Virus record (IMG/VR): IMGVR_UViG_2671180778_000001
DNA length: 7,668 nt
DNA from: a virus
Lineage: Duplodnaviria > Heunggongvirae > Uroviricota > Caudoviricetes
Strand: one strand, 5' to 3'
Shown here in pieces: positions 1 through 7,668 of this stretch. Position numbers and translations under genes: made by a program. Numbering within the stretch: the first letter of the stretch is position 1; every line of letters begins with the position of its first letter. The notes under the pieces are model-generated. The model saw only the letters and a program-made list of their open reading frames with translations. It was not told the DNA's origin and searched no databases.

Positions 1-1
1 C

Positions 2-82
2 GTCATTGAACATATCCAGGACTGGCCGGCAAACCGGGTACGCGATCTGTTGCCCTGGAAAGTTGATCTGAGCTCTCAGTAA
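2..82 (+). CDS. 3' end of an unidentified plus-strand ORF (26 codons visible, ...VIEHIQDWPANRVRDLLPWKVDLSSQ, stop TAA 80-82); 5' end lies outside the window
   Basis: Open frame from window edge to TAA at 80-82, convergent with the integrase gene 41 bp away. Too short to identify; not in ORF track because below its length cutoff. Could also be non-coding. Confidence 0.2.
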   Translation, partial: VIEHIQDWPANRVRDLLPWKVDLSSQ

Positions 83-123
83 ATATCAATACGGTTCTGA
101 CGAGTCGCTTACTTTTTTTCATG

Positions 124-1359
124 TTAACCAGCCTTTTGTTTGAGGATTGTCACTTTTGAATCAGCACCTGCGATGCTATTGAGATATGTAGTCCAGAGTT
201 CCAGAGCATCCAGTTTTTTAGCCATAAACTTACTCCGGTTGTAAACACCTGCCACGCCAGGTAGCGCATGGCCTAACAGTTGTTCTACTACATAAAATTC
301 AACACCGAGATCACTTAGATGAGTAGATAGCGTTCTTCTAAGGTCGTGTAGTGACCATTGTTTTTCATGGCCCAAACGTTTACCGATTTTCCCCCCAATC
401 TTGCTTACGCTTTCTCTAATTCGCAGACTTCCCAGCACATAACCAGTATGTTTTGTCTCTTCGTGAACATCCGTTACCCACTGTCGTAGAATTTCAGGTA
501 CTGGTCTGACGATTTCAACACCAGTTTTTGAGTGATCTTTTGGTACAGTCCAAACCCAACTTTCGAGATCCCATTCGCTCCATTCTGATAATCGGGCTTC
601 ACTCATTCGACATCCAAATACTGTACAAAGCACAAACATTTTTCGCGTGTATTCAGACATTAGTTTTAAATCAGGCTCGACAAAAATTGCCTTCCAGAGC
701 TGGCCGAGTTCGGCTTCATCCAGAACCCGATCCCGCTTACCTGCAATCTGCCCCACATCACTCATGCGCAAATCCTTTAAAGCATCACACGTCGCGTACT
801 GGCGTACCCGACAAAAACGAAGAGCTAATTTAGTGTCAGAAAAAACATACGCCGCCATAACTGGTGCATTACGTTTAATTCGGTCAAAACAGTCCAGCCA
901 TTCATATAGGTGAGTGTCATTTACGGGCAAATGACCGATATAGGGAAAGATATGCTTTCGAAATCTGCCAAGCGTTACAGCATGAGTTTTACGACGCACC
1001 TTACAGTAATTTTCATACCAGTAATTTAGTGCATCCTCCACTGTGACCGGCTTTAAGCGTTCTTCAGCCTGAATCTTAATCTGGATACGCGGATCACGTT
1101 TGTCAGCCAACCAACCACGGCACTCGTCGCGCTTTTCCCTTGCCTGTTTGAGTGACATATCAGGATATTTACCCAACGTTAGCCAGACCGGAGCAGCCCG
1201 GCCACCTGCTAACCTGTAGAAGAAAACAAAGCTCACAGCCCCTTTAGTACTCACACGAATAGAAAGCCCCTTTCCATCAGCAATGGTGATCTGCTTTTCT
1301 CTGGGTTTCCCCAGATATCCTTTAAGCGCTTTGTCGCTCAGTTTGTTCTCGCCAGCCAT
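124..1359 (-). CDS. int: Tyrosine recombinase / phage integrase, P4-type (N-terminal DUF4102-like arm-binding domain plus C-terminal catalytic domain)
   Basis: Track ORF 124-1410. N-terminal pattern LSDKALKGYLGKP...DGKGLSIRVSTKGAVSFVFFYRLAGG typical of P4/CP4-57-type integrases; C-terminal HDLRRT and GVYNRSKF motifs consistent with tyrosine recombinase HxxR/Y catalytic residues. I place the start at ATG 1359-1357 (MAGENKL...) because the track start at 1410 is a GTG and the extra 17 codons (LQSSLYCSLYCFLGLK) translate a DNA direct repeat. Stop TAA at 126-124. Confidence 0.85.
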   Translation of the reverse strand: MAGENKLSDKALKGYLGKPREKQITIADGKGLSIRVSTKGAVSFVFFYRLAGGRAAPVWLTLGKYPDMSLKQAREKRDECRGWLADKRDPRIQIKIQAEERLKPVTVEDALNYWYENYCKVRRKTHAVTLGRFRKHIFPYIGHLPVNDTHLYEWLDCFDRIKRNAPVMAAYVFSDTKLALRFCRVRQYATCDALKDLRMSDVGQIAGKRDRVLDEAELGQLWKAIFVEPDLKLMSEYTRKMFVLCTVFGCRMSEARLSEWSEWDLESWVWTVPKDHSKTGVEIVRPVPEILRQWVTDVHEETKHTGYVLGSLRIRESVSKIGGKIGKRLGHEKQWSLHDLRRTLSTHLSDLGVEFYVVEQLLGHALPGVAGVYNRSKFMAKKLDALELWTTYLNSIAGADSKVTILKQKAG

Positions 1360-1521
1360 TTTTAGCCCCAAAAAGCAATACAAGCTGCAATACAGAGATG
1401 ATTGCAACACACAGATAACGAGGAAAATTCAGTGAAAGCACCAGATAAACTTATTCTTTATTATCAAAAGATTAAGTGTAAAAACCAGCAACTACACGAA
1501 AGCCTCAGAAAGCCATGCTAA
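1360..1521 (-). promoter_or_regulatory. AT-rich integrase upstream region; probable int promoter/operator and possible att-proximal recombinase or IHF binding sites
   Basis: Non-coding gap between the E truncation point and the int start. Contains direct repeat GCAATACA x2, inverted repeat GATAA(N12)TTATC at 1444-1465, and an IHF-consensus-like TATCAAaagaTTA at 1462-1474. No clean sigma70 -35/-10 pair could be fitted by eye. Confidence 0.3.
1375..1394. repeat. Short direct repeat GCAATACA (1375-1382 and 1387-1394) separated by 4 bp
   Basis: Read directly from sequence; lies just upstream of the proposed int ATG. Function unknown (operator or arm-type site candidate). Confidence 0.5.
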
Positions 1522-1767
1522 GTGCTTCGGCTTGACATATCCCGGTGTAAATTCAGAGGTGGAGCCGCCACGGGAGCGGATAACCTCACCGGAAACAATC
1601 GGCGAAACGTACAGCGCCATGTTTACCAGTCCCGGAATTTGTGAGAGATAGACTTTCTCCGTGGTGAAGGGATAGCTCTCACGGAAAAAGAGACGCAGAA
1701 ACAGCGGATCAAACTTAAATTTCTTCTCATTTGCCGCCAGCAGCTGGGCGGTTGTGTACATCGACAT
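1492..1767 (-). pseudogene. E: Truncated major capsid protein gene (lambda E-like): codons 1-82 intact (1767-1522), then 9 unrelated codons (LAWLSEAFV) and stop TAG at 1494-1492
   Basis: Translation MSMYTTAQLLAANEKKFKFDPLFLRLFFRESYPFTTEKVYLSQIPGLVNMALYVSPIVSGEVIRSRGGSTSEFTPGYVKPKH matches the N-terminus of lambda gpE as I recall it (full length ~341 aa). D-E gap is 55 bp as in lambda. Track ORF start at 1794 is an upstream GTG artifact. Confidence 0.85.
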
Positions 1768-1780
1768 AAAAAAATCCCGT

Positions 1781-1802
1781 AAAAAAAGCCGCACAGGCGG
1801 CC
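1781..1802 (-). terminator. Short GC hairpin (GCCGC-ACAG-GCGGC on plus strand, 1788-1801) followed on the minus strand by a 7-nt U tract (1787-1781), in the D-E intergenic region; weak intrinsic terminator-like or mRNA-stabilising structure
   Basis: Seen in sequence: 5-bp perfect stem, 4-nt loop, then T7 on the transcribed strand, 21 nt downstream of the D stop. Stem is short, so termination efficiency is probably low. Confidence 0.35.
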
Positions 1803-1822
1803 TTTAGTGATGAAGGGTAAGG

Positions 1823-2155
1823 TTAAACGATGCTGATTGCCGTTCCGGCAAACGCGGTCCGTTTTTTCGTCTCGTCGCTGGCAGCCTCCGGCCAGAGCAC
1901 ATCCTCATAACGGAACGTGCCGGACTTGTAGAACGTCAGCGTGGTGCTGGTCTGGTCAGCATCAACCGCCAGAATGCCAACGGCAGTACCGTCGGTGGTG
2001 CCATCCCACGCAACCAGCTTACGGGTGGAGGTGTCCAGCATCAGCGGGGTCATTGCAGGCGCTTTCGCACTCAATCCGCCGGGCGCGGTTGCCGTATGTG
2101 CCGGGTCACTGTTGCCCAGCGGCTGGTAATGGGTAAAGGTTTCTTTGCTCGTCAT
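1823..2155 (-). CDS. D: Head decoration protein (lambda gpD-like), 110 aa
   Basis: Translation [40 protein letters not shown]...[10 protein letters not shown] closely resembles lambda gpD. Start taken at ATG 2155-2153 (GGGA 5 nt upstream); track ORF starts two codons earlier at 2161. Stop TAA 1825-1823. Confidence 0.9.
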
Positions 2156-2164
2156 AAACATCCC

Positions 2165-2770
2165 TTACACTGGTGTGTTCAGCAAATCGTTAACGGCATC
2201 AGATGCCGGGTTACCTGCAGCCAGCGGTGCCGGTGCCCCCTGCATCAGACGATCCAGCGCAGTGTCACTGCGCGCCTGTGCACTCTGTGGTGCAGCTGCC
2301 AGAATGCGGCGGGCCGTTTCCACGGTCATACCGGGGGTTTCTGCCAGCACGCGGGCCTGTTCTTCGCGTCCGTGAGCCTCCTCACAGTTGAGGATCCCCA
2401 TAATGCGGCTATTTTCTGCCGCAACCGCAGCGGTGATCTGCGCGTTCACGTCCGGCTGCGCCGCGCTGGCGTTTTCGCCCTCCGTCGCTGGCACCACGTC
2501 AGTAACGTCAGTCTGCGAAGCAGTGGCTGAAACAGTTGTTGATTGAGTCTCTTTGGTCATTCGTCCTCCTGAGAGACGGGATTTACGCGCATCCAGTGCA
2601 TCACGCATGACGGTGATCGCATCGGTGCTGTTAACAAGTTCATCAGCCAGTCCGGCATCAATGGCCTCCTGACCGCTGTACACTGCAGCCTCGGTATCCA
2701 GCACAGCCTGCACAGACAGGCCGGTATATGCCGACACCTTCTGCGCAAACATCTGGCGGGTTGCGTCCAT
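2165..2770 (-). CDS. nu3: Scaffolding protein Nu3, in-frame internal start within C (nested gene), ~201 aa
   Basis: Established lambda biology: Nu3 is translated from an internal in-frame start inside C. An in-frame ATG is present at 2770-2768 (MDATRQMFAQKV...). Exact internal start recalled from the lambda annotation, not verified here. Confidence 0.5.
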   Translation of the reverse strand: MDATRQMFAQKVSAYTGLSVQAVLDTEAAVYSGQEAIDAGLADELVNSTDAITVMRDALDARKSRLSGGRMTKETQSTTVSATASQTDVTDVVPATEGENASAAQPDVNAQITAAVAAENSRIMGILNCEEAHGREEQARVLAETPGMTVETARRILAAAPQSAQARSDTALDRLMQGAPAPLAAGNPASDAVNDLLNTPV

Positions 2771-3464
2771 CCGGGACTGCAGTGTCTCCCGGACGTCATC
2801 CGGAAGATGGCTGTAGGGATTGCCATCCACCTTATGGCTGCCGCTGTAAATCAGCGTGATTTCCACACCCTGTTTCTCCAGGGCAGCACCGTAATTACTG
2901 TGAGCCATCATGACGCCGATGGAGCCTGTCCGGGCGGTCTGCGTGACCAGACGCCGGGAGGCGGCACTGGCAAGCAGCTGACCTGCACTGCAGTTCATGT
3001 CGTTGGCCAGCGCCCATACCGGTTTTATGTCTCGCACACGGGCGATGATGTCAGCGCAGTCAAATGCCCCCGCCACCATTCCGCCTGGCGTGTCCATATC
3101 GAGCAGAATGCCGTCCACCATCGGGTCGCTGGCAGCCTGTTGCAGACGGGCGATAATGCCGTTGTAACCGGTCATCCCCGAGTACGGCTGCAGCGCCCGC
3201 GTCCGGCTGACCAGCGTGCCGGACACCGGCAGCACGGCGATGCCGTTCATGACCTGATAACTGCGGGCCTGTCGTGGTCCGTCATCATCACCGGATAATG
3301 CCAGCGTCGCGAGTGCCTCCTGGGCAGTCAGGCTGTCGCCGGACACCGCATCCGTCAGGCGGCTGATCCCAAGCTGGCCTGCAAGCGCACAAAAGAAAAC
3401 CCGCGCATAGGCGGGTTCAAGCATCAGCGGCTCATTAAAGGCCATGCTGGCAATATGCGGGAGA

Positions 3465-3484
<20 letters not shown>
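2165..3484 (-). CDS. C: Capsid assembly protease C (lambda gpC-like, S49/SppA-type peptidase), 439 aa
   Basis: Translation from MTAELRNLPHIASMAFNEPLMLEPAYARVFF... matches lambda gpC. Start assigned to GTG 3484-3482 preceded by strong Shine-Dalgarno GAGGAGGAG (minus strand); the track ORF extends to 3631 but that extension overlaps the portal gene 3' end. Stop TAA 2167-2165. Confidence 0.85.
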
Positions 3485-7165
<3,681 letters not shown>

Positions 7166-7191
<26 letters not shown>

Positions 7192-7668
7192 TCAGCAACC
7201 CCGGTATCAGTTCATCCAGCGCGGCTGCTTTGTTCATGGCTTTGATGATATCCCGTTTCAGGAAATCAACATGTCGGTTTTCCAGTTCCGGAAAACGCCG
7301 CTGCACCGACAGGGGGATCCCGTCGAGAATACTGGCAATTTCACCTGCGATCCGCGACAACACGAAAGTACAGAATGCGGTTTCCACCACTTCAGCGGAG
7401 TCTCTGGCATTCTTCAGTTCCTGTGCGTCGGCCTGCGCACGCGTAAGTCGATGGCGTTCGTACTCAATAGTCCCTGGCTGGAGATCTGCCTCGCTGGCCT
7501 GCCGCAGTTCTTCAACCTCCCGGCGCAGCTTTTCGTTCTCAATTTCAGCATCCCTTTCGGCATACCATTTTATGACGGCGGCAGAGTCATAAAGCACCTC
7601 ATTACCCTTGCCACCGCCTCGCAGAACGGGCATTCCCTGTTCCTGCCAGTTCTGAATGGTACGGATAC
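7166..7668 (-). CDS. nu1: Terminase small subunit (lambda Nu1-like), 5'-partial: N-terminal ~14 codons lie beyond the window end
   Basis: Track ORF 7166-7633 (MPVLRGGGKGNEVLYDSAAVIKWYAERDAEIENEKLRREVEEL...EYIEQSG) matches lambda Nu1; the frame stays open upstream to the window edge (…IRTIQNWQEQG-MPVL), consistent with the Nu1 HTH region. Stop TAA 7168-7166. Confidence 0.9.

Follow-up and report, generated by a model that had tools for sequence, protein, structure and literature searches.

Why should the gene of a P4-type tyrosine integrase lie just downstream of the stump of a phage major capsid gene, on the strand of the phage late genes? A first-pass annotation of this DNA had offered two answers: a second integrative, satellite-like element with one of its ends here, or two elements that recombination had joined. 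The former proved to be the better answer. We conclude with high confidence that positions 113 to 1532 of the window (the whole stretch of 7,668 nucleotides that was analysed) are the integrase-proximal end, comprising attL, the integrase gene and the start of alpA, of the helper-embedded PICI (HE-PICI) 11capE, integrated site-specifically in codons 79 to 82 of the E gene of a lambda-like prophage. The features on which the argument rests are listed below in order of position.

1-112, plus strand: right end of ISCro1 (IS66 family), with the transposase ORF's 3' end in frame 2-79, its stop at 80-82, and the terminal inverted repeat ...CGCTTAC ending at 112
113-122, minus strand: first 10 nt of alpA, ATGAAAAAAA (excisionase/activator), by alignment with NRG857c
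124-1359, minus strand: satellite tyrosine integrase, 411 aa, 11capE (HE-PICI) clade, by Pfam, catalytic residues and near-identity to NRG857c
1360-1522, minus strand: non-coding attL arm of the satellite between the crossover core and int, identical in the window, strain 104, NRG857c and E04 up to the core
1374-1396, minus strand: doubled TGTATTGC motif, putatively an HE-PICI-specific site for arm-type binding (minus-strand sequence tgTGTATTGCagctTGTATTGCtt)
1523-1532: 10-bp att identity block, TGCTTCGGCT on the plus strand and AGCCGAAGCA on the gene strand, in E codons K79-P80-K81-H82
1523-1767, minus strand: N-terminal fragment (codons 1-82) of E, the helper major capsid gene, by Pfam Phage_cap_E and its translation MSMYTTAQLL...GYVKPKH
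1823-2155, minus strand: D, helper head decoration protein, 110 aa, by the ORF list and the colinear annotated E04 locus
2165-3484, minus strand: C, helper S49 peptidase/scaffold, 439 aa, on the same grounds as D
3465-5066, minus strand: B, helper portal, 533 aa, likewise
5063-5269, minus strand: W, helper head-tail joining protein, 68 aa, likewise
5266-7191, minus strand: A, helper large terminase, 641 aa, likewise
7166-7668 and beyond, minus strand: Nu1, helper small terminase, by colinearity with an E04 gene of 546 nt, which would place its start at 7711

Every long ORF of the window is on the minus strand, and int and the start of alpA are thus co-oriented with the E fragment (E'), D, C, B, W, A and Nu1. 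The D, C, B, W and A genes are intact ORFs, as is int; the first 14 or so codons of Nu1 are lost to the edge of the window, which is not a biological truncation. The integrase frame is open from 124 to 1410, and its ATG form (124-1359), which is the one annotated in relatives, gives the protein of 411 aa. The ORF of the E stump extends from 1492 to 1794, with the real ATG of E at 1767. From the inner edge of E at 1523 to the integrase ATG at 1359 there are 163 non-coding bases, in agreement with the distance of about 160 bp, on the strand of the late genes, that had been noted at first. A tRNA scan of the window found none, so the usual tRNA target of P4-type integrases is not involved, and a search of the whole window against Rfam at gathering thresholds returned no RNA family. 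The closest genome is that of E. coli E04, which is 99.9% identical across 113-7668.

The Pfam domains of the integrase are Arm-DNA-bind_3 (PF13356, formerly DUF4102; E = 3.7e-19) and Phage_integrase (PF00589; E = 1e-16), together with SAM-like and central domains, and the HDLRRT motif is present, as had been read from the letters alone. In a PDB search, the N-terminal domain matched the solved arm domains of 'CP4-like integrase' (3ju0 and 3jtz). For the catalytic domain, the only match in that search was weak and XerC-like, and the catalytic residues were therefore mapped by BLASTP to lambda Int, using a reference identical to PDB 5j0n_E. All six catalytic positions were found: R251, K278, H338, R341, H364 and Y373 of the integrase correspond, in this order, to R212, K235, H308, R311, H333 and Y342 of lambda Int.

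Its closest relative is the integrase of 11capE in E. coli NRG857c, with 410 of 411 residues identical and the single change A55D; the copy of strain 104 likewise differs by one residue. By this identity of 410/411, rather than by a tree, the integrase is a member of the 11capE integrase clade. In the index of an assembly collection, 6195 blocks contain this exact protein, and in all 10 of the contexts displayed int is followed by an intact alpA. Among 50,697 phage genome records there was no integrase more than 51% identical, the best match (50.6%) being found in a 16.5-kb record of an 'induced prophage', and the Int proteins of phi80 and HK225 are 34% identical to that of the window. The initial opinion that this is not a native lambdoid integrase is borne out. 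The label 'P4-family' needs to be qualified: judged by its domains, the integrase is of the broad arm-domain (DUF4102) class that includes P4 and CP4-57, while its identity to P4 Int proper is only 25% over about 270 residues (E = 7e-17).

The element of NRG857c has been described in detail as Eco567.11capE, an 11-kb 'helper-embedded PICI' (Tommasini, Mageeney & Williams 2023, NAR Genom Bioinform 5:lqad036, PMC10111431). It sits in the E-like capsid gene of a prophage that itself maps to icd, with a 10-bp identity block at the site, which was named E:Phage_cap_E:80 and for which 201 examples were given (PMC10111431). It carries a capsid gene of its own, and its int, alpA and primase genes are co-oriented with the late gene in which it lies; AlpA is the conserved excisionase/transcription factor of HE-PICIs (PMC10111431). 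After treatment of NRG857c with mitomycin C, the composite of prophage and satellite excises and replicates, and a precise excision of the satellite then restores E, as measured by qPCR and deep sequencing (PMC10111431). Virions were recovered for neither the helper nor the satellite, even from NRG857c (PMC10111431). Later papers in the collection that was searched cite the HE-PICI concept but report no new experiments on it. The arrangement and the type of element were thus already known, and the window is a further copy with a near-identical integrase.

The stump of E covers only positions 1-78 out of 329 in Pfam's Phage_cap_E profile (current model; E = 6.7e-15), and it had first been taken for a truncated gene. 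The rest of E, about 260 C-terminal codons, lies 11.1 to 16.9 kb past the integrase in strain 104, NRG857c and E04. In E04, both ends of the element carry the 10-bp block of the window, AGCCGAAGCA; in NRG857c and strain 104 the allele AACCCAAGCA is present at both ends, and the two core alleles are synonymous within E. When the insert was taken out in silico together with one of the two blocks, in E04 and in NRG857c, an open E of 341 aa was obtained. An empty site was then sought with a query consisting of the window's own right flank joined to the left flank of E04. It was found uninterrupted, at 100% identity, inside genes annotated as 'major capsid protein', and 3102 genomes matched at least 80% of the query length; a comparison with strains lacking the insertion had been recommended at the outset. 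Because in the relatives the block is present at both ends and excision restores E, and because the empty site exists, we conclude that E is split by a precise site-specific insertion and is not truncated.

On the satellite side, specific DNA begins at 1522 and extends leftwards. The published element has a doubled motif, tgTGTATTGCantgTGTATTGCa, at 132 +/- 2 bp from the centre of attP on the int side and at 81 +/- 2 bp on the other side (PMC10111431). In the window, 131.5 nt separate the near edge of the doubled motif from the core centre; for a second one, at the other end of the strain 104 element, the distance to the core centre is 80.5 nt. Only one att end, attL, is inside the window, and the second end was read in E04, NRG857c and strain 104. 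If the satellite is complete, its far end is expected to read ...TTGACTCATGT, followed by AGCCGAAGCA or AACCCAAGCA and then by 259 C-terminal E codons, and the attP junction of the excised satellite would read …CATGCTAAGTGCTTCGGCTACATGAGTCAATCC…. A search of IMG/VR viral contigs for this attP junction, with both core alleles, gave 0 matches, and hence no independent sign of packaged or circular satellite DNA. In two related loci (L008 and L009) the core alleles are mixed, and these point to strand exchange toward the AAGCA half of the core. Two other segments had been put forward as possible att repeats. One of them, 83-123, consists of the ISCro1 end (to 112) and then of the first 10 nt of alpA; the other, 1411-1521, is part of the satellite arm and stops one base short of the core at 1523-1532. 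The core also falls just outside the interval first assigned to the feature (124-1521).

The junction is not peculiar to this record. Of 5426 complete E. coli genomes, 170 contain the segment 113-2200 at 99.5 to 99.9% identity, in varied helper backgrounds, and the junction of integrase and E is therefore not a chance ORF; over 113-1530, the window is 99.6% identical to NRG857c DNA. Altogether 13 related loci were considered, among them those of strain 104, NRG857c and E04, which were examined with their annotation. In these three, the insert between the two parts of E contains int, alpA, an icd-like gene, a DUF4222 gene, a D5-type primase gene and an SSB gene, as well as a second, divergent major capsid gene, a decoration gene, a second AlpA-like regulator and variable cargo of defence type. 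The Bro, replication (primase, SSB) and late (capsid) zones were present in 13 of the 13 related loci. Identity to the helper protein is 42% for the capsid protein of the satellite (against gpE) and 41% for its D homologue (against gpD). In NRG857c, satellite and helper share a stretch of 258 bp, 90.3% identical, the helper copy of which is just upstream of Nu1; it corresponds to the reported match of the cos regions (258 bp, 90% identical; PMC10111431). In two of the related loci (L011 and L012) the helpers are truncated by an IS.

Two other readings of the junction have to be weighed against site-specific integration. Illegitimate or homologous recombination, or a deletion, could have joined a lambdoid prophage to an unrelated island, and this was the second of the initial answers; from the window alone E does appear truncated, with no tRNA or direct repeat in sight. 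Such an origin is all but excluded, given that the junction is identical in 170 genomes with varied helper backgrounds, that a clean 10-bp block stands at both ends, that excision gives an exact E, and that an intact, uninterrupted empty site was found elsewhere. The type element has, moreover, been seen to excise precisely (PMC10111431). Alternatively, the integrase might be the lambdoid prophage's own, placed in an unusual gene order, as its location within a prophage and its late-gene orientation would allow. We give this almost no credence: nothing more than 51% identical is present among the 50,697 phage genomes, Int proteins of the phi80 type reach 34%, and the relatives have, after int, the PICI set (alpA, primase, SSB) and not phage recombination genes. 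The helper, in addition, maps separately to icd (PMC10111431).

How such a satellite may live with its helper can be outlined from the published model and from the layout of the window. The site-specific integration into E by the tyrosine recombinase, in co-orientation with the helper late operon, is established here, and the exact excision that restores E after induction has been shown for the type element (PMC10111431). Upon induction, the satellite would replicate passively within the composite; late transcription of the helper would run from Nu1 through A, W, B, C, D and E' into int and alpA and would trigger excision of the satellite. As late transcription has to reach int and alpA, the satellite would leave late. 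Expression of the helper capsid gene would wait for this departure, a 'regulated gene integrity' serving the satellite, and no helper heads would be made until the satellite is gone. The helper terminase would then package the satellite through the cos-like region common to both. Read-through transcription and the role of AlpA in excision are proposals of the original authors (PMC10111431). A simple consensus scan of the minus strand found no terminator-like site between D/E' and int, and a scan of the same kind gave one weak promoter-like site upstream of int, at 1482-1453 (minus strand), which was not above chance. The co-orientation of int with the late genes and the absence of a terminator, as read from the DNA, would fit the read-through model.

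The left end of the window adds a further event. Over positions 1-112 the window matches annotated ISCro1 copies of 2056 genomes at 100% identity, each match stopping at 112; the end of the IS reads GTAAGCG in reverse complement, and the segment gives a weak match to Pfam DDE_Tnp_IS66_C. In NRG857c, alpA is intact (MKKMAIV...) and starts one base past the int stop. In the window, ISCro1 separates the alpA start codon from the remaining gene, 10 nt into it. If the insertion is a simple one, some 2.7 kb more of ISCro1 up to its left end, the duplicated target TTTTTTTC, the remaining alpA and an entire satellite of about 11 kb would be found beyond position 1. No complete RefSeq E. coli genome continues across 112/113, the exact ISCro1/alpA junction had 0 matches among GTDB genomes (one per species), and the IS junction was reproduced in 0 of the 10 displayed contexts of the exact integrase protein. 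In E04, ISCro1 sits elsewhere, in int codons 37-39, which correspond to 1242-1249 of the window; this is a simple insertion with 8 bp of target duplicated (CTTTAGTA), and the E04 satellite is otherwise complete. Two independent ISCro1 insertions, 1.1 kb apart, are thus known in the int-alpA module, one in alpA (window) and one in int (E04). The disruption of alpA is a secondary change in a member of the family, and not the mark of a different family; it is an ordinary IS insertion, and the only new detail of this copy.

This insertion leaves room for a more reduced satellite. It is conceivable, though we think it unlikely, that only a remnant (attL, int and 10 nt of alpA) is left, and that ISCro1 has mediated a deletion or inversion by which the other satellite genes, and possibly the C-terminus of E and the tail genes too, were lost or moved away, in which case the integrase would be an orphan relic. 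The window does end within the IS, at a junction shared by no complete genome; it shows one end of the element, while attR, the remaining alpA and the zones for replication and late functions fall outside; and the helpers of the two relatives mentioned above are IS-truncated. On the other hand, int and all the visible helper late genes are intact ORFs, and in E04, which is 99.9% identical, ISCro1 made a simple insertion with an 8-bp duplication in a satellite that is otherwise complete. Simple insertion is also the commonest outcome of IS66-family transposition, which counts against a remnant.

The consequences for mobility can be considered as well. From the role proposed for AlpA, ISCro1 probably traps the satellite through the loss of efficient excision. 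As long as the satellite is unable to excise, the helper E gene remains in two parts, and neither element is likely to be mobile. A stronger version would be that this lock is permanent, with E split for good, and that the two ISCro1 hits reflect a recurrent knock-out of int-alpA and a selection for domestication; we consider this doubtful. If it were true, an induced composite would rely on the satellite's own genes for the capsid (42% identical) and decoration proteins, or be dead. The IS-disrupted alpA is in any case a natural mutant, which could be used to test the need for AlpA in satellite excision. For annotation, the pattern of a truncated capsid gene next to an odd integrase should be read as a nested satellite, and the split E should count in calls of prophage completeness.

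The combination of traits can be compared with several known systems. The skin element in Bacillus sigK is similar in that a split gene is restored by programmed excision of an element, a comparison already drawn in PMC10111431; it differs in that the interrupted gene here belongs to a helper phage, another mobile element, and that the satellite is the proposed beneficiary of the timing. P4 shares with the present element the arm-type N-terminal domain, arm repeats flanking att by int, a satellite lifestyle and a primase gene. However, P4 targets and restores a tRNA-Leu gene, its Int is the distant protein mentioned above, and its sid, psu and delta genes, as well as its P2-type helper, have no counterpart in the gene sets of the relatives.

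Classical Gram-negative PICIs such as EcCICFT073 resemble the relatives in their layout of int, alpA and primase/replication genes, in their size of about 11 kb and in the use of a lambdoid, cos-packaging helper (PMC10111431). They differ by inserting at sites in chromosomal genes and by interacting with the helper in trans only, whereas the 11capE type disrupts the helper capsid gene from inside, without replacement sequence; 11capE has no terS (PMC10111431). The cf-PICIs have in common with the relatives their own homologues of the major capsid and decoration genes. Membership in this group was considered and rejected: cf-PICIs encode a full head and packaging module (portal, protease, adaptors, terminase small subunit, HNH), while the relatives carry capsid and decoration genes only, sometimes with a Nu1-like gene, and no full head module.

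The closest match remains 11capE of NRG857c. The insertion point in E, the attL arm, the doubled motif and its spacing, the co-orientation with the late genes and the lambdoid type of the helper are all the same. The window differs from it by the core (AGCCGAAGCA as opposed to AACCCAAGCA), by alpA, which is broken by ISCro1 after 10 nt, and by the alleles of the helper late genes, for which the window is nearer to E04.

The int-alpA module of this satellite, a helper-embedded element of type 11capE, has been struck by ISCro1, an IS66-family element. The junction seen in the window was absent from complete RefSeq E. coli genomes and from GTDB species representatives, and the genome nearest to the window, that of E. 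coli E04 (99.9% identical), carries an ISCro1 copy of its own inside int:

Window 1-122: ISCro1 right end and, adjoining it, the first 10 nt of the satellite alpA
E04 locus (L003) 17090-19850: independent ISCro1 copy inside int, same orientation as in the window; insertion point equivalent to window 1242-1249

The E04 insertion, at about int codons 37-39, is bordered by an 8-bp duplication, CTTTAGTA. As the two insertions are separate, the int-alpA module has been hit twice in nearly identical composites. Among phage records, the best match to the integrase reached 50.6% identity, in LR881103.1 (Escherichia phage vB_KppS-Ant), a record of 16.5 kb deposited as an 'induced prophage'; this size suggests that it is a satellite rather than a phage.

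Comparison of attL and attR in the 13 related loci carrying the satellite (L001-L013) and of the core in the window (1523-1532) revealed two core alleles, AACCCAAGCA and AGCCGAAGCA, whose differences are synonymous and lie at the third positions of E codons 79 and 80. The same allele was found at both ends in nine loci; L008 and L009 have mixed cores, with AACCC at attL and AGCCG at attR. Because of these mixed cores, the crossover would be placed within the invariant AAGCA half, unless the E alleles recombined at a later time. On the attL side, the ORF of the E stump (window 1492-1794, minus strand) continues into satellite DNA and meets a stop after 9 extra codons (…GYVKPKH-LAWLSEAFV*); since it remains open over these codons, a 91-aa N-terminal gpE fragment could, judging from the reading frame, be produced from late transcripts.

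Among the satellites, the int, replication and capsid parts are conserved and the defence-type cargo differs, at two hotspots. This cargo includes TIR-domain proteins, DUF2971, Abi_C, HEPN with DUF262/GmrSD, AF_1680, and TIR_2 with DUF3298. In some satellites of the group only, a Nu1-like (Phage_Nu1) small-terminase homologue is placed past the second AlpA-like gene:

L004-L013, about 11450-12400: cargo hotspot directly past alpA
L004-L013, about 19000-21000: cargo hotspot directly ahead of attR
L006 18866-19408, L007 18720-19262, L008 19163-19636 and L013 19332-19805: Nu1-like homologue

Unlike these last four, 11capE of NRG857c has no such homologue, a difference of possible relevance to the redirection of packaging. 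As for the helper's own Nu1, its start codon is expected at 7711, about 43 nt past the window end (window 7634-7668), and the helper cos region also lies beyond; the 155-aa Nu1 ORF does not show the true extent of the gene, its apparent start being produced by the window edge.

Elements of the IS3 or IS1 family have, in some of the genomes, also reduced the helper prophage that surrounds the satellite:

L011 8073-9537: IS-reduced helper region, D truncated
L012 2088-6290: IS-reduced helper region, Nu1, A and W missing

The satellites of these two loci are stranded inside a dead helper, a situation also remarked on by Tommasini, Mageeney & Williams (2023, PMC10111431).
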